Positions 1,247 through 63,960 of a stretch of DNA of 64,000 nt are shown here, in pieces. Source of the stretch: an uncultured Gammaproteobacteria bacterium (GTDB lineage Bacteria > Patescibacteriota > Microgenomatia > Levybacterales > UBA12049); contig CAZIDK010000003.1 of assembly GCA_964537895.1 (NCBI GenBank), positions 1,171-65,170 on the forward strand. Reading direction: 5' to 3'. The position numbers and the translations under genes are program-made. The stretch's first letter is position 1, and every line of letters starts with the position of its first letter. The notes under the pieces are model-generated. The model was not told the origin of the DNA, ran no database searches, and saw only the letters and a program-made list of their open reading frames with translations.

Positions 1247-1876
1247 CTAGAGATTCCTGTTTCTTATCGTAACCGAGGTCTGAAACGGGACGCTTGCCTT
1301 TTTTTCTGCAAAATTACCTGGATTATTGTCGGATAGGGTCAGATTTATTCCAATCGTAGGGGCTTGGCCAAAATTAGTCTGCGTACAGGTAAAAGAGCAC
1401 AAAACAAGCGAAACGGCTGAGGTGTCTATAAGAGATGCGCCGTTTGAGGCAATCGTTGAACCATTACAGGAAAATATTGTCTGACCGCTGTCAAATGAAG
1501 TTATTTTTATATACTGATAGGCAATTGGAGCAGGAGTAGGTGAAGGAGAGGGAGGAATTGCTTGGGTACAATTAGTTTTGTAAAAAACGCCGTCCGTACT
1601 CACACCGTTAAAGTTTTGAGCATAAATAATCATTTTTGACATTTGCGTAATTGCATCGTTGCCGTTTTGCCTAACACTATCCAAAACATTAGATTTACTT
1701 CCTCCGCGCAAGGAAGAAATAAGAATACCGGCTACGATAACACCAACAACAACCACAATTGCCATAACTGCCAAAAGTTCTACCAATGTATAACCCTTCT
1801 CGGAATTGAAAATTGAAAATTGCCCGCCCCGCTTCACTTGGCGAGGCCGGGGAAAATTGAAAATTCGTTTTTTCAT
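1247..1876 (-). CDS. prepilin-type N-terminal cleavage/methylation domain protein (pilin-like, 'pseudopilin'); the leader peptide contains an in-frame repeat-element insertion
   Basis: Has the G|YTLVELLAVMAIVVVVGVI class III signal. Unusually long leader MKKRIFNFPRPRQVKRGGQFSIFNSEKG. PSPSPTPAP linker further in. Confidence 0.75.
   Translation of the reverse strand: MKKRIFNFPRPRQVKRGGQFSIFNSEKGYTLVELLAVMAIVVVVGVIVAGILISSLRGGSKSNVLDSVRQNGNDAITQMSKMIIYAQNFNGVSTDGVFYKTNCTQAIPPSPSPTPAPIAYQYIKITSFDSGQTIFSCNGSTIASNGASLIDTSAVSLVLCSFTCTQTNFGQAPTIGINLTLSDNNPGNFAEKKASVPFQTSVTIRNRNL
1803..1867. repeat. GC-rich palindromic element (core CCCGCCCCGCTTCACTTGGCGAGGCCGGGG) flanked by GAAAATTGAAAATT repeats, inserted in frame in the pilin leader
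   Basis: Near-identical copies at 6280-6338 and 37868-37985; all are translated in the same orientation. Confidence 0.7.
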
Positions 1877-3433: not shown

Positions 3434-4227
3434 CCCGAGCCTGTGCAGCTTTGACTAAACGAGCTTGGGGTACAGGCTCCTCTACCTGTGTAATAATTGT
3501 AGGTGCAGGTTTGCAAGCCCGTTCCGCACTGAACACTGCAGGAACCGCAGGAAGCGCCGGTATTGCAGATTGGTGTAGGCGTTGGGGTTGGAGACGGAGT
3601 CGGTATCGTAGTTGGAGGCGGGGTTGGAGCAGGGGTAGGGGTATTTACGATATTTGTTTTCCCTAAGGTTATAATGCCTTGCGGATTAACTGTTATTGTT
3701 TTTGTTTGATCATGCCCTGTCAGGACTATATTTCCCCCACCTTGTACGCCGCTGGTAATAACCGGAAAGAAAACAAAAGTAGTGGTTGTTTGTCCGGAAG
3801 CAAGGTTAAATTTAATATTTCCATTATCCGGCAGTGTTATTGTTTGAATCAAATAAGTTCCCAGACAAACGGCGCTTAAGCTGTACGTTGTGTCGGAAAG
3901 AATGTCTACCCGATATCCGCTAAGCGCCTCATTTGAGCACTGGTTTGGTTTTACCTGGGAACTCGCGCTGGATTTGGCCAAATTTAAAGTTGACGCTAAA
4001 CTTGCGGCCGCAGTTTGAAGCGATTGAGCTCTACTGTAATTAACAAATGATACAATGCCTATGGTCGAAAGAATTGAAATAACAGAAAAAACTATTATTA
4101 ACTCTAGAAGAGTAAATCCTTCACTTTTTATTAATCTCGGAAAGTGAAGGGTAAACCCTCTATTGCTGAGCTGTTGAATTGCTGAATTGTTGAAATTAGT
4201 TTTCATAGCAATGTAATAATTTAACAA
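3427..4227 (-). CDS. pilin-like protein with a C-terminal PT-rich linker and Cys-rich module (tip-adhesin-like pilin)
   Basis: GFTLLELIIV prepilin motif, then TPTPAPTPPPTTIPTPSPTPTPTP, then CxxC-rich C-terminus. N-terminal 170 aa are a near-duplicate of 2387..2875. Confidence 0.7.
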   Translation of the reverse strand: MLNYYIAMKTNFNNSAIQQLSNRGFTLHFPRLIKSEGFTLLELIIVFSVISILSTIGIVSFVNYSRAQSLQTAAASLASTLNLAKSSASSQVKPNQCSNEALSGYRVDILSDTTYSLSAVCLGTYLIQTITLPDNGNIKFNLASGQTTTTFVFFPVITSGVQGGGNIVLTGHDQTKTITVNPQGIITLGKTNIVNTPTPAPTPPPTTIPTPSPTPTPTPICNTGASCGSCSVQCGTGLQTCTYNYYTGRGACTPSSFSQSCTGSGC

Positions 4228-5234: not shown

Positions 5235-6091
5235 AAGTTACCGCTGCAAGTTGTAGCTCCCGGTCCGGAATAACAAGTTAGGGTCCCTCCGTATATTGTA
5301 CACTGGTTAGATGTTACACTGTTACAGAGTCCGGCGCTGACCGCAAAGTAATTCGGACTGCAATTAAACGGCGTAGGCGTAGGCGTAGGCGTAGGCGTTG
5401 GGGTAGGAATTCCGCTTCCTGTTGGGGTAGGGATAGGGGGGGTTGGCGTTGGGGTAGGTGTTGGAACAGGCGTTGCGAATAAAGGAGCTGGCAATGAGTT
5501 TGCGGATATGTAAGCGCAATCTACTTTTCCCGATAGCACGCAATAATTATAACCTGAACTTTGATAATCTACCGGCAAACAGTTAGATAGCTCTGTTAAA
5601 GGACAGGAGGTTTGCACGTCTTGGGCTGAAGATAATTTAGCAAATAGCACGTTCCACTGCGGACATTGAGTTGTATCTGTTTGGTAAAGATATGACGGAT
5701 TAGAGCCATTTGAAAAATCCGGATCTTGAGGAACTTTTTGCATATACACTATTGAACCGCTGCTAAACGGAGCTCCCATTGTTAACGAAATAGGATAACA
5801 GTTTTTATCACTATAGTAAGCATCAAGAGAGTTTCTTATTTGGAATACATCATGCTGACGCTGTGCATCTCTTGCTTTCTGGAGCTGCCTTATCGGATTA
5901 ATAGTCACTATTAGAAAGGTGATAAGCACAGACAATATAATAATTACAACTACTAATTCTATTAGGGTAAACCCAAAAAAATTATTATTTTTGGAATTAA
6001 TAAATCTCCATAAAAGAGGGCTAAAATTGTACCTAATATTAAAAAGGGGCCAAAAGGAATTGTGTCTTTTATAGACCTTTTTTTTCGCCAT
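5222..6091 (-). CDS. pilin-like protein with a long leader, GspG-like N-domain, long PT-repeat linker and Cys-rich C-terminal module
   Basis: FGFTLIELVVVIIILSVL; (TP)n linker TPVPTPTPTPTPPIPTPTGSGIPTPTPTPTPTPTP; C-terminal CxxC-rich segment. The annotated start overlaps the peptidase gene by 130 nt, so the true start is uncertain. Confidence 0.65.
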   Translation of the reverse strand: MAKKKVYKRHNSFWPLFNIRYNFSPLLWRFINSKNNNFFGFTLIELVVVIIILSVLITFLIVTINPIRQLQKARDAQRQHDVFQIRNSLDAYYSDKNCYPISLTMGAPFSSGSIVYMQKVPQDPDFSNGSNPSYLYQTDTTQCPQWNVLFAKLSSAQDVQTSCPLTELSNCLPVDYQSSGYNYCVLSGKVDCAYISANSLPAPLFATPVPTPTPTPTPPIPTPTGSGIPTPTPTPTPTPTPFNCSPNYFAVSAGLCNSVTSNQCTIYGGTLTCYSGPGATTCSGNLCTQ

Positions 6092-6831
6092 ATAATTAGT
6101 ATGATACCTATAATTGCTCCTGTCAAGAAAGCTAAATACAAGGCTAAAATTATCTTCGGAAAACCCAGTATGAGCCCAAGCAAAAACGACAGTTTTACGT
6201 CTCCAAAACCCATACCTTTACCCTTGGTAATCAAGAATAGAATAAGAAAAAAAACGAATGCCCCAATAGCGGAAAAAACAAAATTGAAAATTGAAAATTG
6301 CCCGTCCCGAGTGAAATCGAGGGGAAAATTGAAAATTAAATAAATAGAGCTTACGATTATTGCCGGGAAGACTACTTTATCCGGAATAATTCCAAATTTT
6401 AAATCTTCAAAAAAAATAACAATAAAACTTGAGACAATAAATAAATAATAAACCAGGCTGATTAAAGATTGAAGATTAAAGATTAAAGAATTAGAAATTG
6501 ACCCGCCTGCAACGCTTTGCATAGCAATGCGGGCAGGAAATTGAAAATTAAGTCCATAAACAAACATAAATGTGGTTAAGAATAAAATTCCCGTAGAAAA
6601 CTCTATGATAGGGTAGAATATACCAATGGACTTATGACAGTATCTGCATTTTCCCTTCAGCATTAAAAACGAGAGTAGGGGAATGAGATCATACCAAGCA
6701 AGTTCTTTTTTACAAAACTCGCAATGTGATCTCCCTTTTGCAATTGTTTCCTTACGAGGCAATCTGTCGATAGCTACATTTAAAAAGGAGCCGATGAAAA
6801 CTCCTATTGCAAATATGAATAAAAACTCCAT
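5962..6831 (-). CDS. pilD: prepilin peptidase (A24 family, PilD/ComC-like) carrying two in-frame repeat-element insertions
   Basis: N-terminal CxxC..CxxC (CEFCKKELAWYDLIPLLS..GKCRYCHKSI), multiple TM helices and a GFGDVKL-type motif. Confidence 0.8.
   Translation of the reverse strand: MEFLFIFAIGVFIGSFLNVAIDRLPRKETIAKGRSHCEFCKKELAWYDLIPLLSFLMLKGKCRYCHKSIGIFYPIIEFSTGILFLTTFMFVYGLNFQFPARIAMQSVAGGSISNSLIFNLQSLISLVYYLFIVSSFIVIFFEDLKFGIIPDKVVFPAIIVSSIYLIFNFPLDFTRDGQFSIFNFVFSAIGAFVFFLILFLITKGKGMGFGDVKLSFLLGLILGFPKIILALYLAFLTGAIIGIILIIWRKKRSIKDTIPFGPFLILGTILALFYGDLLIPKIIIFLGLP
6280..6338. repeat. GAAAATTGAAAATT-flanked GC-core element (variant core CCCGTCCCGAGTGAAATCGAGGGG) in frame inside pilD
   Basis: Encodes FNFPLDFTRDGQFSIFNF. 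Same flanks and orientation as the copy at 1803-1867. Confidence 0.65.
6494..6552. repeat. second element type (core CCCGCCTGCAACGCTTTGCATAGCAATGCGGGCAGG, GAAATTGAAAATT flanks) in frame inside pilD, followed by AGATTAAAG x3
   Basis: Encodes LNFQFPARIAMQSVAGGSISNSLIFNLQSL. The same 36-nt core recurs in intergenic DNA at 43794-43829 and, as a variant, at 18113-18152. Confidence 0.65.
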
Positions 6832-9799: not shown

Positions 9800-9873
9800 A
9801 CTTTAGTCATTAGTTAATTAGTTATTAGTTAGTTAGTAACTGATTTACTAACTACTAGTAACTAGCAACTGAT

Positions 9874-12304: not shown

Positions 12305-12601
12305 ATGAGTCAAACAGAAATAGGCGCACCAACTACGCCAACAGAAGCTAGGGAAACGCAGAGCCCCGAACGACGTCTAGTCTATGGGATCATGAGAAGA
12401 ATAGATAGGAGAGTAGAAAGAACTCTTGCCAATCCAAACTTAACACCCGATCAAATGCAAGAGCTTCTTCTACTTGCTAATCTTACGAAACTTGCCTTGG
12501 AATTAAGATGTCTAATGCCAGCAGTAAGATTTGGCGAAGAACTTGTTGAGCTATCCGATCCCTTAATGATTCCTGAAGCAACTCCCACAGAGCTAGGATA
12601 A
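12305..12601 (+). CDS. hypothetical protein; GC-rich orphan
   Basis: 98-aa ORF starting 9 nt after the holB stop. Markedly higher GC than the flanks. No motifs. Confidence 0.35.
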   Translation: MSQTEIGAPTTPTEARETQSPERRLVYGIMRRIDRRVERTLANPNLTPDQMQELLLLANLTKLALELRCLMPAVRFGEELVELSDPLMIPEATPTELG

Positions 12602-12602
12602 C

Positions 12603-12900
12603 CTCGGGGAAAATTTGAGTTTGAATAAAATGTTTCCACGTATCGATACATCACAACAAAACATTATTACTGTAAGTATACTAGTATATTAGTAATTAGT
12701 TCGACGGAAATAAATCTCAAACTCAGAAAACTAAATAACACAGGGGTCAAAAAAAATTGTGGGGAAAATTTGGGGTTGAATAAAATGTTTTCACGTATCG
12801 ATACATCACTACAAAGCTTTTAGGGGTTCAACCCCTAAAATAGATTGATAATTCAACAAGAACCGAGTAAGTGAAAAATTAAACTGGAGGGGAAAATTTG
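12603..12900. repeat. cluster of interspersed repeats: GGGGAAAATTTG(A/G)GTTGAATAAAATG units, palindromes GTATCGATAC and TATACTAGTATA, REP-like GGGGTTCAACCCC
   Basis: Units at 12605, 12763 and 12892. The block 12630-12695 is about 85% identical to the reverse complement of 54790-54870 and 55640-55720. Confidence 0.7.
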
Positions 12901-12926
12901 GGGTTGAGATTTTTACTTAAAACCGT

Positions 12927-13172: not shown

Positions 13173-13256
13173 AAACGGAATTATAGCATGAGGATTTTCT
13201 AAAGCAAATTGGGTGGAAAATTTGGATTTGCTCGCACCGACCCCTGGGGTTGAAAG

Positions 13257-13847
13257 CTAGTCTTCGAAAACTAACTCTTTTACTTGAACTGCTTCTGCTT
13301 CCGAAATGTCATATTCAGTAAATTGTTTATAATCTTTTGCCGGATTATTCGCAGCAAAATAATTAAGTATGTACGAAGAATCTACTAGGTCATCTTTCTT
13401 ACCATCAATATAAGCTGTGTAGCTTGACCAAGGATAAAGCGCAAGCTCAACCCCAGGGGTTGAAATTGGAATCGGATTTCGGTGTATATAGCGGGATACT
13501 TGTAGGAGATACTCATCTGAATCTATTAATTTTGCCTTAAAGCGGCCTTGGAAAAGACTTCCTACTTCATTATATTTAATATTAAAATATTTCGCAAAAC
13601 TGGTCGCCAATCTTAGCATAAAAAACGTGATAGGTAAGTCTGTGTCTTGCCTAAGAAGAAAATGAAAATGATTTGGCATTAAACAATATCCCAAAACGGT
13701 TACTCCAAATTTATCTTTATATTCTCTCGCTCGTTCCAAAAACCTCTTGTAATCTCTATTCTGAAGAAAAATATTTTGCTTTCTATTACCTCTGTTGTAA
13801 ACATGATAATAAGAGTCCTTTCGAAAATATCTAGGAGGAGTAGCCAT
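13257..13847 (-). CDS. HUH/Y1 tyrosine transposase, IS200/IS605-TnpA or REP-associated (RAYT)-like; the ORF is open to 14009 but Met55 at 13847 is the more likely start
   Basis: YHVYNRGNRKQNIF, then the HuH motif LMPNHFHFLL, then catalytic Tyr context SRYIHRNP. GGGGTTGA/TCAACCCC palindromes flank it at 13239-13252 and 13877-13891, and one lies inside at 13447-13461. Confidence 0.6.
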   Translation of the reverse strand: MATPPRYFRKDSYYHVYNRGNRKQNIFLQNRDYKRFLERAREYKDKFGVTVLGYCLMPNHFHFLLRQDTDLPITFFMLRLATSFAKYFNIKYNEVGSLFQGRFKAKLIDSDEYLLQVSRYIHRNPIPISTPGVELALYPWSSYTAYIDGKKDDLVDSSYILNYFAANNPAKDYKQFTEYDISEAEAVQVKELVFED

Positions 13848-14009
13848 GTTCTTAGTAAAACACGAAAGTCTTTCAGCGTCAACCCCAGGGGTTGACGCAT
13901 GGAGATAACTCTTTAAGACGTTTGACGTTTTGGAAAGTTTGGGAGAAAAAGCAGGTTGGCAGGTCGAAGATGCCCTGTGGGTAAAAATTTGGTTTTGAAA
14001 TTTTTGCAC

Positions 14010-19330: not shown

Positions 19331-21367
19331 ATGAACTTATCTTTTATTTTGGACCACAAACTTATTGTTTCCGTTGCCGCGGGAATCCTCTCCATTTTAT
19401 ACGCAGTTTTCTTAAGCTACAGAGTTTTGTCACATGAACGGGGTGACAAAAAAATGAATGATATTTCCGACGCAATAGAAGAAGGCGCAGTTGCCTACAT
19501 GAAAAGACAATATACCGTAGTTGCCGCAATCGGTGCCATCGTTTTTGCAATTTTATATTTTGTTTTTAATCCAATAACTGCAATTGGATTTGCAGTCGGC
19601 GCTGTTTTTAGTACCATCGCAGGCGTTATCGGAATGTCTATTGCCGTTAGAAGTAACATAAGAACCGCACAAGCAGCTAAAAAAGGCCTTGCTGCGGCAT
19701 TTAATTTGGCTTTCCAGGGCGGAGCGGTAACAGGGCTGATGGTTGCAGGACTTGCTCTTTTAGCAGTTTCCGGATTTTATTTTGTTTTAGAAAGATATGC
19801 CCCGGGAAATCTCCAACCGTTAATTGCCTTAGGTTTCGGAGGAAGTTTGATTTCTGTTTTTGCCAGACTTGGAGGGGGAATCTTTACAAAATCTGCCGAT
19901 GTAGGAACAGATATGGTTGGAAAACTGGAGAAAGGAATTCCGGAAGACGATCCAAGAAATCCCGGAGTTATTGCGGATTTGGTAGGGGATAATGTCGGAG
20001 ATGATGCCGGAATGGCAGCGGACTTATTTGAAACTTATGTAATTACGGCAGTCGCCGCTATGATTTTAGGAAATTTAACTTTTCCGGGAAACCAAGCAGT
20101 TTTATTTTACCCGATGTTAATCGGAGCAATTTCTATTGTTGCCTCGATTATCGGAACTTGGTTTGTAAGACTGCGCGGAACAGGAATAATGAACGCTTTG
20201 TATCAAGGTCTAATTGCCTCAATACTTGTTTCCTTGGTAGGATTTTATGCAATAACCGCCGCTGTTTTTCCAAATGGAATCGGAAATATACCAACGCTAA
20301 ATCTTTTTTATGCGTCTATGATTGGCCTGATTGTTACAATCGGAATGGTTGTAATTACGGAATATTTTACTTCCAAAAAATTCTCACCCGTTAGAACAAT
20401 CGCCAACGCATCTTCCACAGGACACGGAACAAATGTAATCGCGGGTTTGGCAGTTTCCATGAAATCCACAATGGCTCCGATTCTTTTAATTGCAGGAGCA
20501 ATTTTAGTTTCGTTTAATCTGGCAGGACTTTATGGAATCGCAATTGCCGCAATGAGCATGTTATCTTTGGCAGGAATTATTGTTGCAATCGATGCTTTCG
20601 GACCAATAACCGATAACGCAGGCGGAATTGCCCAAATGGCCGGTATGGATAAAAAAGTTAGAGACATTACAGATCCTTTGGACGCAGTCGGAAATACGAC
20701 CAAGGCAATTACTAAAGCTTATGCAATCGGGTCTGCGGGACTTGCAGCATTAGTTTTATTTGCAAGCTACACACAAGAATTAAGCAGAAATGGAAGGGTA
20801 TTGGATATGGCAGCATTTTCACTTTCCGATCCAAAAGTAATTATCGGATTATTTATCGGCGGTGCATTACCATACCTTTTTGCAGCCCTTGCAATGGAAG
20901 CTGTTGGAAAAGCCAGCGTTGCAGTTGTTGATGAAGTCAGAAGACAATTCAGGGAAATCAAAGGTCTTATGGAAGGCAAAGCAAAACCCGAATATGCAAA
21001 AGCAGTTGATATTGTAACTCGCGCCGCAATCAAAGAAATGATTTTACCAACTGCAATTACGCTTTTAGCGCCAATTGTTGTTGGTTTTGGTTTAGGCCCA
21101 ACAGCCTTGGGGGGGATGTTAGTCGGAAGCATTGTCACAGGTCTATTCTTAGGAATTTCTATGACTACCGGCGGAGCAGCCTGGGATAACACCAAAAAAT
21201 ATATTGAAGAAGGAAATTTGGGCGGCAAAGGAAGCTTTGCGCACCAAGCGGCAGTTACGGGAGATACTGTTGGCGACCCTTACAAAGATACCGCTGGGCC
21301 TGCAATCAATCCAATGATTAAGGTTTTGAACATTGTAGCTCTCTTAATCGCAGGCTTCCTTGTTTAG
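19331..21367 (+). CDS. hppA: membrane-bound proton-translocating pyrophosphatase; the ORF is open from TTG at 19295 but ATG 19331 (MNLSFIL) is the more likely start
   Basis: Hallmarks [20 protein letters not shown] and [21 protein letters not shown], with about 15 TM helices. Confidence 0.93.
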
Positions 21368-21448
21368 ATACTAGTTACTAGATACTAGAAACTAGTTGAT
21401 AATTTAGGAGAACTAATAACTAATCAACTAGCAACTAATCACTAATTT

Positions 21449-23917: not shown

Positions 23918-23998
23918 AAGATAGCGTATAGGAAATAGCGTATAGGGTATAGTTAACCAGACACTAAACGCTAGACGCTAATAACTAATCACTGATTT

Positions 23999-32485: not shown

Positions 32486-33125
32486 AACCCTCTGATATCA
32501 ATTTTCTTCGGAGAAGTGAAAAATTATTAAAATTTAGCCTCAATTAGCCTCAAAAAATTCATCTGCATTAGTCCTGTAGTAGGGAAGACTATAAAGCTGT
32601 AAAAAACGGGGACTTAATCTGAAACATAGCGTACCAAGAGTTGAAATGTTTTTAAATATATGCTGAAAAATAAGACGCCGGAAGAGGTCTTCTCCCAGGC
32701 ATTGAGCCTAGCTGGCGTCGTAAAAGTATTATTGTGCGACATAATCAATTACCCTCGCCCAGCTGCTTATAACACTAAATTTTCTCCCTAACACCCGCCG
32801 GGGTACAATATTAGTTATTAGCTACTAGATATTAGTTAGTAGTTAGTGCTCTCTTCAAATAAACCGCTAAATTATCTAACTACTGCGAGTCGTACAAGAC
32901 CCTCTCTCCACCGAGCCGGCACGTAGTTGAATTTAGCCCGTTATTATAAGCTAATCGCGTAATTTTAGCCTCAAAAATGTTGAGTATAGCAATTATACAT
33001 ACTAATCCTTAGAAAGAGAACGCGCCATAAGAGGCATTCGTATTTTTTTCATTAGAAACAGTTTACGATCCGCCTTTAGGCGGGAGTAGTTACTGTTTCT
33101 TATGTCCGCCGATGATTCGCTCTTT

Positions 33126-33176
33126 GCGCCGTATACGAATAGTACTGAAAAGGCGCAAAGTAAGATTAGGCGGACC
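33126..33176. repeat. nested-hairpin element GCGCCGTATACGAATA..AAAGGCGCAAAGTAAGATTAGGCGG inside a roughly 1-kb noncoding region
   Basis: Related to the copies at 36915-36980 and 43765-43868. Perfect 9-bp stem CTTTGCGCC/GGCGCAAAG. Confidence 0.5.
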
Positions 33177-35063: not shown

Positions 35064-35211
35064 CATACGTAGCAACTAGCCACTAGAACTTAGCAACTAG
35101 TTGTTAACTGAATGCTAAATGCTGAAGGCTAGATGCTGATATTATACCTTTTCTACCTTGACTTTTGCAATTGATTTGTAGTAAAATTTTCCAATCGATT
35201 TTATCTCCTAA

Positions 35212-36915: not shown

Positions 36916-36980
36916 TCCGTGAACCGTATTCGAATAGAATAGAAAGGCGAACGGTAAGATTAGGCGGGTTTCTTTTTTGA
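36915..36980. repeat. intergenic element CTCCGTGAACCGTATTCGAATA..AAAGGCGAACGGTAAGATTAGGCGGG followed by a T-run
   Basis: Shared with 43765-43868 and partly with 33126-33176. Confidence 0.55.
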
Positions 36981-37150: not shown

Positions 37151-37288
37151 GCACGTTCGATGCGACTCAGTACAAAAAATGCTGAGCGCAGTCGCACGTT
37201 CGATGCGACTCAGTACAAAAAATGCTGAGCACAGTCGCACATTCGACAATGCTCAGTGCGATACTGAGTTTATCGAACGTATCGAAGG
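37151..37288. repeat. tandem 43-bp hairpin repeat (2 full units plus an inverted partial unit)
   Basis: GCACGTTCGATGCGACTCAGTACAAAAAATGCTGAGC(G/A)CAGTC twice; the third unit ends with inverted TCGAACGT. Confidence 0.7.
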
Positions 37289-37299
37289 TATTTTTGTGC

Positions 37300-38091
37300 T
37301 TATTGGCTGATTACCTTACTCAATTCCCCAGGCAATGGAGACTCTAATAAGACTTGCTTATTGGTTATTGGGTGTATGAATGAAATTTTGTGTGCGTGCA
37401 AGAAAACGCGCTTGAGAATTTTTCTGTCCTGCCTTGAGGTTTTTCTTCCCGCATATAAAAAGTCAGCAAAAATAGGATGACTAAAATACTTTAAGTGAAC
37501 TCTTATCTGATGCGTTCTTCCTGTTTCCGGATAAAGCTCCAGGAGGCTCATCGGCTCTTCTTTTTTTCCCGATACTAAATACTTAATACTTAATACTTTA
37601 TACTTCGTAACCGCTTCCCTACCGCCTGCCAAAACCCCAAACTTTTTTCTGTTCCAAGGCAGTCTTCCGACAGGAACATTTATTTCTCCTATCTCCGGCA
37701 CAACTTTCCCGTGGCAAAGCGCAAGATAAGTTTTTTTTATAACTCTTTCTTTAAACTGTTTTTGCAGATTTTCAAAAGCCGGAAGGGTTTTGGCAACAAG
37801 TAAAATTCCCGAAGTTTCTTTATCAAGCCTATGAACTATTCCGCTTCTTTTATAAAAATCCGACTCCTCGTCAATTCTGAATTCTGCCCGCCCCGCTTCG
37901 CTTGTCGAGGCTGGAGAACTCTGCCCGCCCCGCTTCGCTTGTCGAGGCCGGGGAACTCTGAATTTACTGTCCAGCCAATCCTGTACCGTTTCCTCCCCTA
38001 TCGTAGTATCGGAACGATTAACAGTTATTCCCGCGGGCTTATCCAAAACCAAAACGTCATCGTCCTCGTAAATTATTTTAATATTACTCAT
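37300..38091 (-). CDS. RluA-family pseudouridine synthase with an in-frame tandem repeat-element insertion
   Basis: HRLDKETSGILLVAKT catalytic motif. The insert encodes RVPRPRQAKRGGQSSPASTSEAGRAEF just before the catalytic loop. Confidence 0.85.
   Translation of the reverse strand: MSNIKIIYEDDDVLVLDKPAGITVNRSDTTIGEETVQDWLDSKFRVPRPRQAKRGGQSSPASTSEAGRAEFRIDEESDFYKRSGIVHRLDKETSGILLVAKTLPAFENLQKQFKERVIKKTYLALCHGKVVPEIGEINVPVGRLPWNRKKFGVLAGGREAVTKYKVLSIKYLVSGKKEEPMSLLELYPETGRTHQIRVHLKYFSHPIFADFLYAGRKTSRQDRKILKRVFLHAHKISFIHPITNKQVLLESPLPGELSKVISQ
37868..37985. repeat. two tandem copies of the GC-core element CTGCCCGCCCCGCTTCGCTTGTCGAGGC(C/T)GG(G/A)GAACT flanked by GAATT repeats, in frame inside rluA
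   Basis: Core is near-identical to 1818-1850. The copies are 40 nt apart, so they are read in two different frames. Confidence 0.7.
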
Positions 38092-43764: not shown

Positions 43765-43868
43765 CTCCGTGAGCCGTATTCGAATAAAATTGACCTGCCC
43801 GCATTGCTATGCAAAGCATTGCAGGCGGGAAAGGCGAACGGTAAGTTTAGTCGGATTCCCGTTTTTTG
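43765..43868. repeat. composite element: the CCGTATTCGAATA..AAAGGCGAACGGTAAG..T-run element with a nested CCTGCCCGCATTGCTATGCAAAGCATTGCAGGCGGG element inserted inside
   Basis: Outer part aligns with 36915-36980. Inner 36 nt (43794-43829) is the reverse complement of 6502-6537. Confidence 0.6.
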
Positions 43869-47079: not shown

Positions 47080-48198
47080 ATGGCAAACGACCGATTAGAA
47101 AAATTAAAAAAAGAGATCCAAAAAATGGGCCTTGATGGTATTTTGGTTTCTGATCCGGCAAATATTTTCTATCTTTCAGGCATCACATTTTTTGAGCCGA
47201 CAGAACGTGAAGGATTTCTACTTATCACTACTAACAAAAATTATGTTATTACCAGCAGTCTTTACACTGAGGCAGTGCAAAAATATCTTAGGGGGTTTAC
47301 TCTTTTAGAGACAACGATCAAAAAATCGCTTGAAAAAAATCTAAGGGGGATTTTTAAAATAACCCCATTGAAAAAGATTGGGTTTGAGGAAGCAAGTTTG
47401 ACAGTTTCTGAATACAATATTTTTAAAAAAACCTTTAAACTTTCTCCTGCGGGTGGTCTCGTAGAAAAACTAAGAGCTATAAAAAACCAAGGTGAAATCG
47501 AAAAAATTAAAAAAGCCTGTCGGGTAACAGACGAAGCGTTCGATTATATTCTTTCGGAAATAAAAGAGGGGGGAACCGAAAGGGAGATTTCTGATAAGCT
47601 TGAGAGATTTTTTAGAAATAAGGACATGTCGTCCTCTTTTAGTCCCGTTATAGCCTTCGGACCCAACTCTTCCCGCCCACATCATATAAGTGGGAACACT
47701 AAGCTTAGTAGGAATCAAATAATCCTTATGGATTTCGGCGTAAGGAACGGGGGGTACTGCTCAGATTTTACAAGAACAGTTTTTTTCGGCTCCCCCACAG
47801 CGAAATTCAAAAAAATTTACCAAACTGTTCTTGATGCTCAAAACAAAGCAATTGAATTTATCAATAGTCAATTGTCAACCCCGATTCAATCGGGGTCAAT
47901 GGTAAATAATCAATTATTTGCGCATGAAGTCGATAAAATAGCAAGAAACCATATTATTGAGAGAGGCTTTCCATCCATCCCTTACAGCCTGGGACACGGA
48001 ATTGGAATAGATGTTCACGAATCTCCAAGCCTATCTCCAAAATCAAAAAGCGGATTAAAAAACGGTATGGTATTTTCAATAGAACCCGGAATTTATCTAA
48101 ACGGTTGGGGCGGAGTTAGAATTGAGGATCTTTTCCTACTGGAAGAAAACTCTTTGAAAAAAATTACCTATTCCGCTTCCGAGATTATTAGTCTATAA
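47080..48198 (+). CDS. pepP: M24-family Xaa-Pro aminopeptidase/dipeptidase
   Basis: Creatinase-like N-domain and pita-bread domain with GHGIGIDVHESP and metal ligands. Confidence 0.8.
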   Translation: MANDRLEKLKKEIQKMGLDGILVSDPANIFYLSGITFFEPTEREGFLLITTNKNYVITSSLYTEAVQKYLRGFTLLETTIKKSLEKNLRGIFKITPLKKIGFEEASLTVSEYNIFKKTFKLSPAGGLVEKLRAIKNQGEIEKIKKACRVTDEAFDYILSEIKEGGTEREISDKLERFFRNKDMSSSFSPVIAFGPNSSRPHHISGNTKLSRNQIILMDFGVRNGGYCSDFTRTVFFGSPTAKFKKIYQTVLDAQNKAIEFINSQLSTPIQSGSMVNNQLFAHEVDKIARNHIIERGFPSIPYSLGHGIGIDVHESPSLSPKSKSGLKNGMVFSIEPGIYLNGWGGVRIEDLFLLEENSLKKITYSASEIISL

Positions 48199-54407: not shown

Positions 54408-54752
54408 TTATATTTCCATTTTATCTTTTATTTTTTCAAGTCCGGCTTTAGTCATTTTCCCTTCTTTTATTAACTTTTTTATTCTTTCCTTATTACTCTC
54501 CGATAAATTGCTTTTTTCTTTTCTTGGGGTAAATCTGCCGGCAAATGTTTCCCTATCAATCCCCTTTTCTATGCTATCTATCCAGCCAAAACAAAGAGCT
54601 TCTTCAACCGCATCGTTATAGGAAATTGTTGGTTTTCCTGTTGTTTTCTTGTAATAGATAAGCCAAATCTCCTTTTCCTTATCGTAGTTTTTAGAAAACC
54701 ACTTTCTCCACTCTTTCCTATTTGTTACATAAAGAGTTTTTCCAATATTCAT
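54408..54752 (-). CDS. YdeI/OmpD-associated (OmdA) family protein
   Basis: W..W......EIWLIYYKK..GKPTISYNDAVEEALCFGWIDS, the family signature. Confidence 0.6.
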   Translation of the reverse strand: MNIGKTLYVTNRKEWRKWFSKNYDKEKEIWLIYYKKTTGKPTISYNDAVEEALCFGWIDSIEKGIDRETFAGRFTPRKEKSNLSESNKERIKKLIKEGKMTKAGLEKIKDKMEI

Positions 54753-54756
54753 AAAC

Positions 54757-54906
54757 CAATTATACCACGGGAAAATTTGAAACTAAAGAAAAAATAGATT
54801 ACTGCAGATATACTAGTATACTTGTAATAAAAGGATTATGTAGTGATGTATCAATACATTAAAACATAATCAACTAAATAAATATCGGGGTGAAAATAAA
54901 CGCGGG
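54757..54906. repeat. 150-bp module (copy 1) holding an extended -10 promoter TGGTATAAT (minus strand) 6 nt from the ATG plus palindromes TGTATCAATACA and TATACTAGTATA
   Basis: About 95% identical to 55598-55748. Both copies abut the start codon of a minus-strand gene. Confidence 0.75.
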
Positions 54907-54969
54907 AGAAATTGGTTTTGCTAATCATAAAGTTTTGGCATATAATAAAATTAAAGGAGGTGATTTGAA

Positions 54970-55240: not shown

Positions 55241-55594
55241 CTATGAAACCATTATCTTATCGTCTGCTACCGAAGGAAATCTGATAGTTTGAACAACGAT
55301 TTCATCGCTCAAAACTTTTTTTATGCAAACTGTGATCTTTGGCGGAATAATTAAATAATCCCCCTCATTCATTTCTACTTCCTGTCCGTCGACCTCCCAA
55401 ATTCCCTTTCCATTCCAAATAATATCAAGTTTCGTTGAGGTCTTATTAAAATGGGGCTTGGATGAAAAAGATTTATCAAGCTTTGCTATTTTTATTTCTG
55501 CCCTATCATCTTTCGCTAAACCTTCCGGCATAAAACTTCCATAAATCCACCCGTTTCTTTCTTTTTCTTCGAATGCATTTCCTTTTTTATACAT
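55241..55594 (-). CDS. cupin-like small protein
   Basis: 117 aa with a beta-rich pattern including G.W.V.G.....EGDYLIIPP. Confidence 0.4.
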   Translation of the reverse strand: MYKKGNAFEEKERNGWIYGSFMPEGLAKDDRAEIKIAKLDKSFSSKPHFNKTSTKLDIIWNGKGIWEVDGQEVEMNEGDYLIIPPKITVCIKKVLSDEIVVQTIRFPSVADDKIMVS

Positions 55595-55597
55595 AAG

Positions 55598-55748
55598 TTG
55601 ATTATACCACGGGGAAATTTGAAACTAAAGAAAAATAGATTACTGCAGATATACTAGTATACTTGTAATAAAAGGATTATGTAGTGATGTATCAATACAT
55701 TAAAACATAATCAACTAAATAAATATCTGAGTGAAAAATAACTCGGGA
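55598..55748. repeat. 150-bp promoter/operator module (copy 2)
   Basis: See copy 1 at 54757-54906. Confidence 0.75.
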
Positions 55749-55782
55749 GGAATTGGGAGAAGACGTAATACGATCGTAATCC

Positions 55783-63874: not shown

Positions 63875-63960
63875 ATATTTTTAGCCATCAGCCATTAGCG
63901 TCTAGCTTTTAGTTTAACTAATTGCTAGTTGCTAGTTGCTAGCGGCTAATTACTGGTTAG

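Follow-up and report, generated by a model that had tools for sequence, protein, structure and literature searches.

The small dispersed repeat (SDR) elements of heterocystous cyanobacteria are the closest analogue known to us of the repeat family considered here. SDR1-8 of Nostoc/Anabaena, the subject of work by Elhai and co-workers in 2008, are reportedly tiny hairpin repeats lying in heptamer repeats or palindromes, and are said to be nested, polymorphic between close relatives and divided into several families of unrelated sequence but similar fold. To our knowledge no enzyme is known for these elements, whose mode of movement has gone unexplained since 2008. The present analysis concerns a 64,000-nt stretch (the window) of contig CAZIDK010000003.1, assembly GCA_964537895.1, deposited as an uncultured Gammaproteobacteria bacterium and placed by GTDB in the Patescibacteriota (Levybacterales), and within it a doublet of a 30-nt GC-rich core in a heptamer array of rluA, a pseudouridine synthase gene. 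The rluA doublet belongs to a widespread family of mini-elements that resemble SDRs and reside in heptamer arrays within coding sequences of Patescibacteria. Like SDRs, the cores are a few tens of nucleotides long (21-36), are predicted to form a hairpin, are multi-copy, lie within heptamer arrays (44 copies) or at the tips of inverted repeats with some nested, and are precisely present or absent at orthologous sites (0, 1, 1′ or 2 cores in rluA, and a site at 47876 that is filled or empty). Unlike SDRs they occur in Patescibacteria, mostly in protein-coding and even essential genes where they are read in three frames, and one core is near-identical across class-level lineages. No published description of such elements was found in the literature on Patescibacteria or the candidate phyla radiation (CPR), nor any literature description of SDR-type elements outside heterocystous cyanobacteria.

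Other described repeats share some of these features. Rickettsia palindromic elements (RPEs) are about 100-150 bp long, with one conserved peptide per family read in one frame and no heptamer arrays, and we know of them only from Rickettsia. They are palindromic repeats that lie in frame in unrelated housekeeping genes and are compatible with the fold of the product (PMC10969869). The cores are likewise inserted in frame in housekeeping genes with the fold preserved; unlike RPEs, which are about five times longer and read in a single frame, they measure 30 nt and give three peptides by frame. Elements of the REP (repetitive extragenic palindromic) class are extragenic and tagged GTAG or CGTC (PMC3733652), and the genes of the REP-associated tyrosine transposases (RAYTs) are single-copy, vertically inherited and flanked by palindromes (10.1101/2022.05.22.493013, PMC3337134). 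The cores resemble the REP/REPIN-RAYT system in being GC-rich imperfect palindromes of 20-40 nt with a short end tag common to different hairpins, and the window contains a single-copy, vertically inherited, palindrome-flanked Y1 gene. They differ in being mainly intragenic (39/44 heptamer-flanked copies lie in long open reading frames, ORFs) and in lacking GTAG and CGTC on either strand, the tag being instead G(G/A)CGGG|CA; moreover, the palindrome flanking the Y1 gene differs from the dispersed core, and the Y1 protein scores below the RAYT cutoff. Heptanucleotide simple sequence repeats (SSRs) that have been named include the cyanobacterial STRR, GGGNATC of Xanthomonas/Nostoc and TAACTGA of Beggiatoaceae. 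Over-representation of period 7 and a preference for about four units have been reported for such SSRs (PMC4692102; PMC4679880), and the heptamer repeats of Xanthomonas/Nostoc combine the four-unit preference with under-representation in ORFs (PMC4692102). Whereas those SSRs comprise one or a few units per genome and are mostly intergenic, the arrays of the window each have a locally derived unit, and many of them lie in ORFs and host GC cores.

The rluA cassette, its alleles and its product

The host gene (37300..38091, minus strand) is an open ORF of 263 aa whose product belongs to the RluA/RluD family of pseudouridine synthases (PF00849, E=8.5e-31), with RluD, RluC and RluA as homologues in the Protein Data Bank (PDB). 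Among syntenic orthologues the gene is preceded by lgt and followed by a 45-aa ORF and LytR_C. The 37-nt sequence CTGCCCGCCCCGCTTCGCTTGTCGAGGCYGGRGAACT is present in rluA as two abutting copies (37884-37920 and 37921-37957), for a chance expectation of zero; they lie head to tail, are identical at 35/37 positions and are reported by Tandem Repeats Finder (TRF) as a period of 37 with 2.2 copies. Each copy consists of a 30-nt GC-rich core and a 7-nt repeat unit. The whole cassette (37873..37960, minus strand) comprises four heptamers with 30-nt cores at junctions 1 and 2, giving a length of 88 nt (4x7 + 2x30). Its heptamers in coding-strand order are CAGAGTT, CAGAGTT, CAGAATT and CAGAATT, and the layout on that strand reads AAATT CAGAGTT [core1] CAGAGTT [core2] CAGAATT CAGAATT GAC. 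Core 1, the 5′ copy (CCCCGGCCTCGACAAGCGAAGCGGGGCGGG, 37924..37953, minus strand), is read in frame A as PRPRQAKRGG; it is the family consensus with CCGG and shows no differences from the core of the orthologous locus L002. Core 2 (CTCCAGCCTCGACAAGCGAAGCGGGGCGGG, 37887..37916, minus strand) is read in frame B as (S)PASTSEAGRA; it occupies the same junction as the core of locus L001 and has in common with it the variant CCAG, carrying a derived A (A5). The second core is read one frame over because 37 = 36+1, reflecting the 7-nt offset between junctions. The doublet translates as ...RVPRPRQAKRGGQ SSPASTSEAGRAE..., placed 14 residues N-terminal to the catalytic motif HRLDKETSG.

The initial annotation had described two adjacent copies of an element in an open rluA frame, N-terminal to HRLDKETSG and translated in two frames, and in this it is borne out by the ORF, the PF00849 match, the sequence and TRF, with the peptides as it gave them. 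Its spacing of 40 nt gives way to the period of 37 nt, and the peptide that it held to be the same in a pilin leader reads PRPRQVKRGGQ there, identical at only 10/11 positions. It overlooked the heptamer array in which the cores are in fact lodged.

Orthologues of rluA from Patescibacteria differ mainly in the insert loop, which is hypervariable, and six syntenic loci (L001-L006) were compared with the window at the DNA level. L004 carries (CAGAATT)x4 empty of core. Numbering the heptamers H1 to H4, L002 reads H1 [core] H2 H3 H4, L001 reads H1 H2 [core] H3 H4 and the window reads H1 [core] H2 [core] H3 H4. The remaining loci have other arrays: CAATTTT x4 with a different core of 24 nt in L006, a CAAAATT-type array alone in L003 and (CAAATGG)x4 alone in L005; in more distant orthologues the array is absent altogether. 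Every rluA allele that has an array has four heptamers, and the lengths of the L004, L002, L001 and window alleles differ by exact 30-nt steps. The core is therefore gained or lost as precisely 30 nt immediately 5′ of CA, and the target site is not duplicated. A reading of the three extra heptamers as target duplications was rejected, the empty allele L004 also having four. Nor does the core behave as a miniature inverted-repeat transposable element, for which terminal inverted repeats and a target-site duplication are expected, since filled and empty alleles are equal in heptamer number. A second, independent pair of alleles is provided by a 21-nt core, which the window has and L006 and L083 lack, the same five-unit array being found in all. 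No other contig encoding the exact window RluA was found, and the protein cluster look-up lists one record, from NCBI only; a strict metagenome scan for rluA alleles of the same species gave 0 matches, and a looser flank pattern recovered 11 metagenomic loci, mainly more distant orthologues.

Residues 26-79 of the window RluA fall outside the alignments with PDB homologues. An AlphaFold model built on the orthologue alignment (predicted template modelling score, pTM, 0.73) keeps the core fold intact and gives a predicted local distance difference test (pLDDT) value <50 at residues 47-71, between helix 36-43 and the catalytic strand. The extra 20 residues are thus predicted to form a disordered surface loop ahead of the catalytic strand that is tolerated by the enzyme. 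As read from the sequence, the core comprises 10 codons and is stop-free in six frames; because of this each insertion into a coding heptamer array stays in frame, and in conceptual translation the cores are simply read through with the host gene, giving one of three peptides (PRPRQAKRGG, PASPSEAGRA or PGLAKRSGAG) according to the junction. Several expectations of the initial annotation bear on these results. Single-copy and empty-site alleles, which it suggested be sought, exist in related genomes (L002, L001 and L004); the surface loop, for which it proposed a structure model, corresponds to the loop of pLDDT <50 in an intact fold, and the comparison with homologues places the insert outside the conserved fold. 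It was also right that the reading frame stays open across both copies. It took this as a sign of selection on the frame or of very recent insertion, for which there is no need, because a core of 30 nt that is stop-free in six frames and inserts without target duplication leaves the frame open in any case.

Distribution and hosts of the 30-nt core

The 30-nt core has the consensus CCCCGGCCTCG(A/C)CAAGCGAAGCGGGGCGGG. A scan with the pattern CCTCGNCAAGNGAAGCGGNGCGGG over one genome per species (596 Gb, about 0.3 chance matches expected) recovered 67 loci in about 45 species genomes, nearly all of them Patescibacteria; the pattern demands near-identity, so that the search itself accounts in part for how invariant the core seems. 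The lineages represented are widely separated (Levy-, Gottesman-, Curtiss-, Kuenen-, Falkow- and Portnoybacteria, together with Parcubacteria), and a few loci have non-CPR labels. One of the latter, a contig labelled Ignavibacteriaceae (L030), has three non-coding cores inside a longer conserved repeat, ...CCTGTCCGTCCT[core]CTGGCGGATCAAGTTTACCCG..., which may be a carrier element of greater size or else reflect horizontal spread. No match to the core was found in IMG/VR viral contigs, and no Rfam match was found in the window or in five core-bearing loci.

Forty-four copies lie between site-specific heptamer units such as CAAAACT, CAAATTT, CAAAAGT, CAACCTA and CATTTTC. The core is followed by CA in 42/44 of these and preceded by T in 35/44, and the arrays that host it mostly have 4-5 units in total with the core near the middle. 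All other copies cap GC-rich inverted repeats that are specific to their sites; in some cases such a repeat itself forms the loop of a further small hairpin element, so that the insertion is nested. Palindromic elements derived from IS200/IS605 (PATEs) are expected to insert without target duplication next to a short specific sequence and to have hairpins at both ends and a cognate TnpA; for the cores there is no duplication, CA comes after the core in nearly all heptamer-flanked copies, each core has one hairpin, and none of the Y1 genes in the core-bearing loci could be tied to it as a cognate TnpA. Sense-oriented open frames of at least 100 codons contain 39/44 of the heptamer-flanked cores, the three frames being used 7/16/16 times, and the ratio of sense to antisense copies is 39:4. 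This bias follows from the sequence of the units, since the complement of an array of CAnnnnT contains TGA in each of its frames. The Pfam-identified hosts include LeuRS (three distinct sites), a further class I synthetase, GyrA, RpoB, SecA, DnaK and DnaG, PGK, PurD, LepA, ribosomal protein L3 and GatB, as well as UvrC, an AddA-like helicase, transketolase, Pol X and MltG. That a housekeeping enzyme carries the same element as the pilus genes, as had first been remarked, therefore stands, but the implied tie to pilus genes does not, the element being phylum-wide in varied hosts. Although a hairpin is predicted for the core, single units fold no better than shuffled sequences (z -0.07 to -1.2), whereas the 106-nt mRNA-sense region folds better than its shuffles (z=-2.8).

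If real, the cores would be among the smallest mobile DNA units known. Their hosts would imply that the reduced genomes of Patescibacteria tolerate repeated insertion into RpoB, GyrA, aminoacyl-tRNA synthetases, ribosomal protein L3 and the like, and core insertion would be one way for conserved proteins to acquire disordered loops. The cores also account for many odd low-complexity CPR peptides, such as FSIFNFQ, PRPRQAKRGGQ and SPASPSEAGRA, and can mislead alignments, phylogenies and the placing of domain boundaries. The rluA allele series offers a natural experiment on element movement, with a syntenic RAYT-like gene as the candidate enzyme.

Proposed movement of the cores and competing explanations

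On balance, the rluA doublet probably represents a miniature hairpin element, non-autonomous in kind, that is present as two independent copies at adjacent junctions of a pre-existing four-unit heptamer array. The host array would have encoded a surface loop of RluA before any core arrived, and the target would be a short single-stranded loop, formed by a slipped heptamer or by the tip of an inverted repeat or hairpin. Integration could proceed by a single-stranded DNA reaction of the HUH/Y1 type (RAYT or IS200-like), which would fit because there is no duplication, the targets are able to extrude loops and the tag G(G/A)CGGG|CA is common to different cores; an RNA-templated route, as is reportedly proposed for cyanobacterial SDRs, would also fit. 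The double allele might then have arisen by a second insertion into an allele already bearing the core at junction 2, or alternatively by equal crossover of a junction-1 allele with a junction-2 allele. For RluA itself the element is most likely selfish or neutral.

A candidate for the enzyme is the putative RAYT-like Y1 (HUH) tyrosine transposase gene at 13257..13847 (minus strand; PF01797, E=6e-14), whose product contains the motifs NHFHFLL and SRYIHRNP and scores 49 bits against NCBIfam REP_Tyr_transpos (NF047646), below the cutoff of 80. Its syntenic slot (gyrB ... holB/T4P operon) is shared with two other species, represented by L085 and L086, at 65-69% identity, a pattern that points to vertical descent. 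In the wider region noted for the gene (13257-14009, minus strand) and its flanks, a conserved palindrome, GTCAACCCC(W)GGGGTTGAC, stands on both sides of it, at 13239-13256 and 13878-13897, with a third copy inside the gene. Separately, a repeat family containing GGGGAAAATTTG(G/A), which resembles the 3′ end of the core plus a heptamer, was observed at 12598-12907, 13205-13231, 54746-54915 and 55588-55756, its copies lying near the Y1 gene and upstream of the small paralogous ORFs 54408-54752 and 55241-55594.

Several points weigh against an explanation by separate insertions of a mobile element. The double allele is recorded in just one assembly, and the direction of change is unprovable from the alleles alone, as ancestral cores that were deleted precisely would leave an identical picture. 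Turnover of the cassette also includes whole-patch replacement, which simple insertion does not explain: L005, the nearest of the genomes, agrees with the window at 97.5% of positions outside the insert and yet has (CAAATGG)x4 and no cores, so that array type fails to track gene phylogeny. The patch that differs (window 37872-37982, L005 950-1000) has sharp edges, and the 16 nt at its upstream side match the distant-lineage L006; the comparison looks like mosaic replacement, and whole cassettes appear to be exchanged or rewritten. As for the enzyme, the palindrome GTCAACCCC(W)GGGGTTGAC is confined to Y1 genes, not dispersed and distinct from the core; a tblastn search for Y1 in 772 kb of core-bearing loci found one other gene only; and no enzyme is tied to the core, the Y1 link being a hypothetical lead. 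Finally, a purely neutral parasite would hardly be expected to have a core so nearly identical in very distant lineages, which may reflect a nucleic-acid function or constraint.

This last point leads to the suggestion that the core is kept for a role as nucleic acid, such as a protein-bound hairpin, a signal for recombination, uptake or replication, or an mRNA structure affecting translation or decay. Identical 24-30-mers in Patescibacteria divergent at class level, whatever the frame, would suit such a role, as would the stereotyped architecture with a central core and the CA rule, the strong sense bias, the fold of the 106-nt mRNA-sense region and a non-coding copy of another core at a terminator-like place downstream of dnaB. 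We nevertheless regard it as rather doubtful: cores are present or absent among close relatives at one site without compensating change, the sense bias is explained by the CAnnnnT units, the Rfam match is absent and single units are unexceptional against shuffles, three copies per 64 kb is low for an uptake signal, and the invariance of the core is partly a product of the exact-match search. Reading the cores as DNA-uptake sequences was indeed set aside for their low copy number, and a G-quadruplex reading was set aside as there are two G-runs per core only. A more far-reaching proposal is a phylum-wide, actively maintained system of Patescibacteria in which a host activity, RAYT-like Y1 or RNA-templated, writes and erases hairpin cassettes of 21-36 nt at heptamer arrays in essential genes, continually remodelling surface loops or serving as a conserved nucleic-acid signal, with the arrays as its products or landing pads. 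The cassettes would then be smaller than any other known mobile unit; we hold this proposal to be fairly unlikely.

The doublet itself might be a recent slippage duplication of one 37-nt unit, core plus heptamer. The copies are adjacent, head to tail and nearly identical, and TRF treats them as an array of 2.2 copies, much as the initial annotation took them for a simple tandem copy. That origin is improbable, for an added 37 nt breaks the frame and loss of one heptamer would also be required, while exactly four heptamers are found in all CAGAATT alleles, whether empty, single or double. Moreover, single-core alleles occur at each junction in different genomes (L002 and L001), and the cores are distinct variants; with the derived CCAG of L001 in core 2 and the consensus CCGG in core 1, slippage would require a back-mutation. 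We infer that two separate insertions, or an equal crossover, fit the doublet better than slippage does. It is more improbable still that selection favours the insert for its peptide, as a loop rich in Arg/Lys that serves RNA binding or interaction in RluA and other proteins. The frame A peptide PRPRQAKRGGQ is basic and near the catalytic loop of an RNA-modifying enzyme, and the loop is hypervariable among orthologues; but the same DNA is read in three frames across hosts, two of them within RluA, the hosts are unrelated in function, and the segment is predicted to be disordered and is absent from close orthologues. Equally remote is the idea that the heptamer array is a contingency (phase-variation) locus switching rluA, pilin and PilD, with the cores as incidental passengers. 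Heptamers within an ORF do shift the frame unless the change is of three units, and arrays are found in pilus genes, a typical target of phase variation. Contingency SSRs are marked by changes in unit number that switch the frame, which is not what the recovered alleles present: those with CAGAATT, CAAAATT, CAATTTT and CAAATGG all have four units and intact frames, and arrays also lie in RpoB, GyrA and LeuRS, where switching off would be lethal.

Other cores and heptamer arrays in the window

The window has 18 period-7 arrays where about 2.1 would be expected, an excess of about nine-fold, and the core lengths observed in clear heptamer arrays are 21, 24, 30 and 36 nt. Cores A-D, otherwise unrelated, have the terminal tag G(G/A)CGGG|CA in common. 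The same core as in rluA, with 3 substitutions, forms a cassette in the pilin leader at 1804..1866 (core 1823-1852, minus strand) with CAATTTT heptamers on both sides; its host is a type IV pilin-like ORF (1247..1876, PF07963), whose leader minus the core is a heptamer-coded stretch and minus the array would read MKKRIFNSEKG|YTLVELL. The prepilin peptidase gene (5962..6831; PF06750, PF01478) contains two further cores in frame. The 24-nt core B, CCCCTCGATTTCACTCGGGACGGG on the coding strand, lies between CAATTTT heptamers at 6280..6338 (core 6301-6324, minus strand), a site at which orthologues vary, and the 36-nt core C lies beside a GATTAAA heptamer array at 6460..6550 (core 6502-6537, minus strand).

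A second copy of core C (43794..43829, plus strand) is non-coding and lies in a conserved 3′-end motif just downstream of dnaB. This motif, CCGCCTAATCTTACCGTTCGCCTTT on the gene strand, overlaps the stop codons of three minus-strand genes (33149-33173, 36943-36967 and 43830-43854) and is followed by TATTCGAATACGG; in the dnaB copy the two halves are split by the 36-nt core C. The 21-nt core E, GTCAACCCCGATTCAATCGGG, that provides the second pair of filled and empty alleles is found between GTCAATn units at 47866..47907 (plus strand), in frame in ORF 47080..48198.

A second heptamer array of rluA, ATACTTA x4.9 (37572..37605, minus strand), was detected by TRF; it has no core, is translated as KYKVLSIKYLV and falls in a beta-hairpin in which the orthologue P0043 has a 24-aa GC-rich insert. 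Directly downstream of rluA, an intergenic tandem repeat of 43 nt (GCACGTTCGATGCGACTCAGTACAAAAAATGCTGAGCACAGTC, 2.2-2.5 copies, 37151-37257) holds a CTCAG...CTGAG hairpin in every unit. Intragenic heptamer arrays are stop-free, whereas intergenic arrays carry stops in CTAG-type units. Intergenic arrays of CTAG/TAG units occur at 9803-9839, 21365-21446, 23921-23980, 32809-32845, 35070-35139 and 63918-63951; they present stops in all frames on both strands and are often adjacent pairs at gene ends. In the cluster of pilin-like genes, a 300-nt direct repeat (2416-2715 and 3693-3992), with copies 97% identical and 1277 nt apart, resembles a recent duplication of a minor-pilin gene segment.

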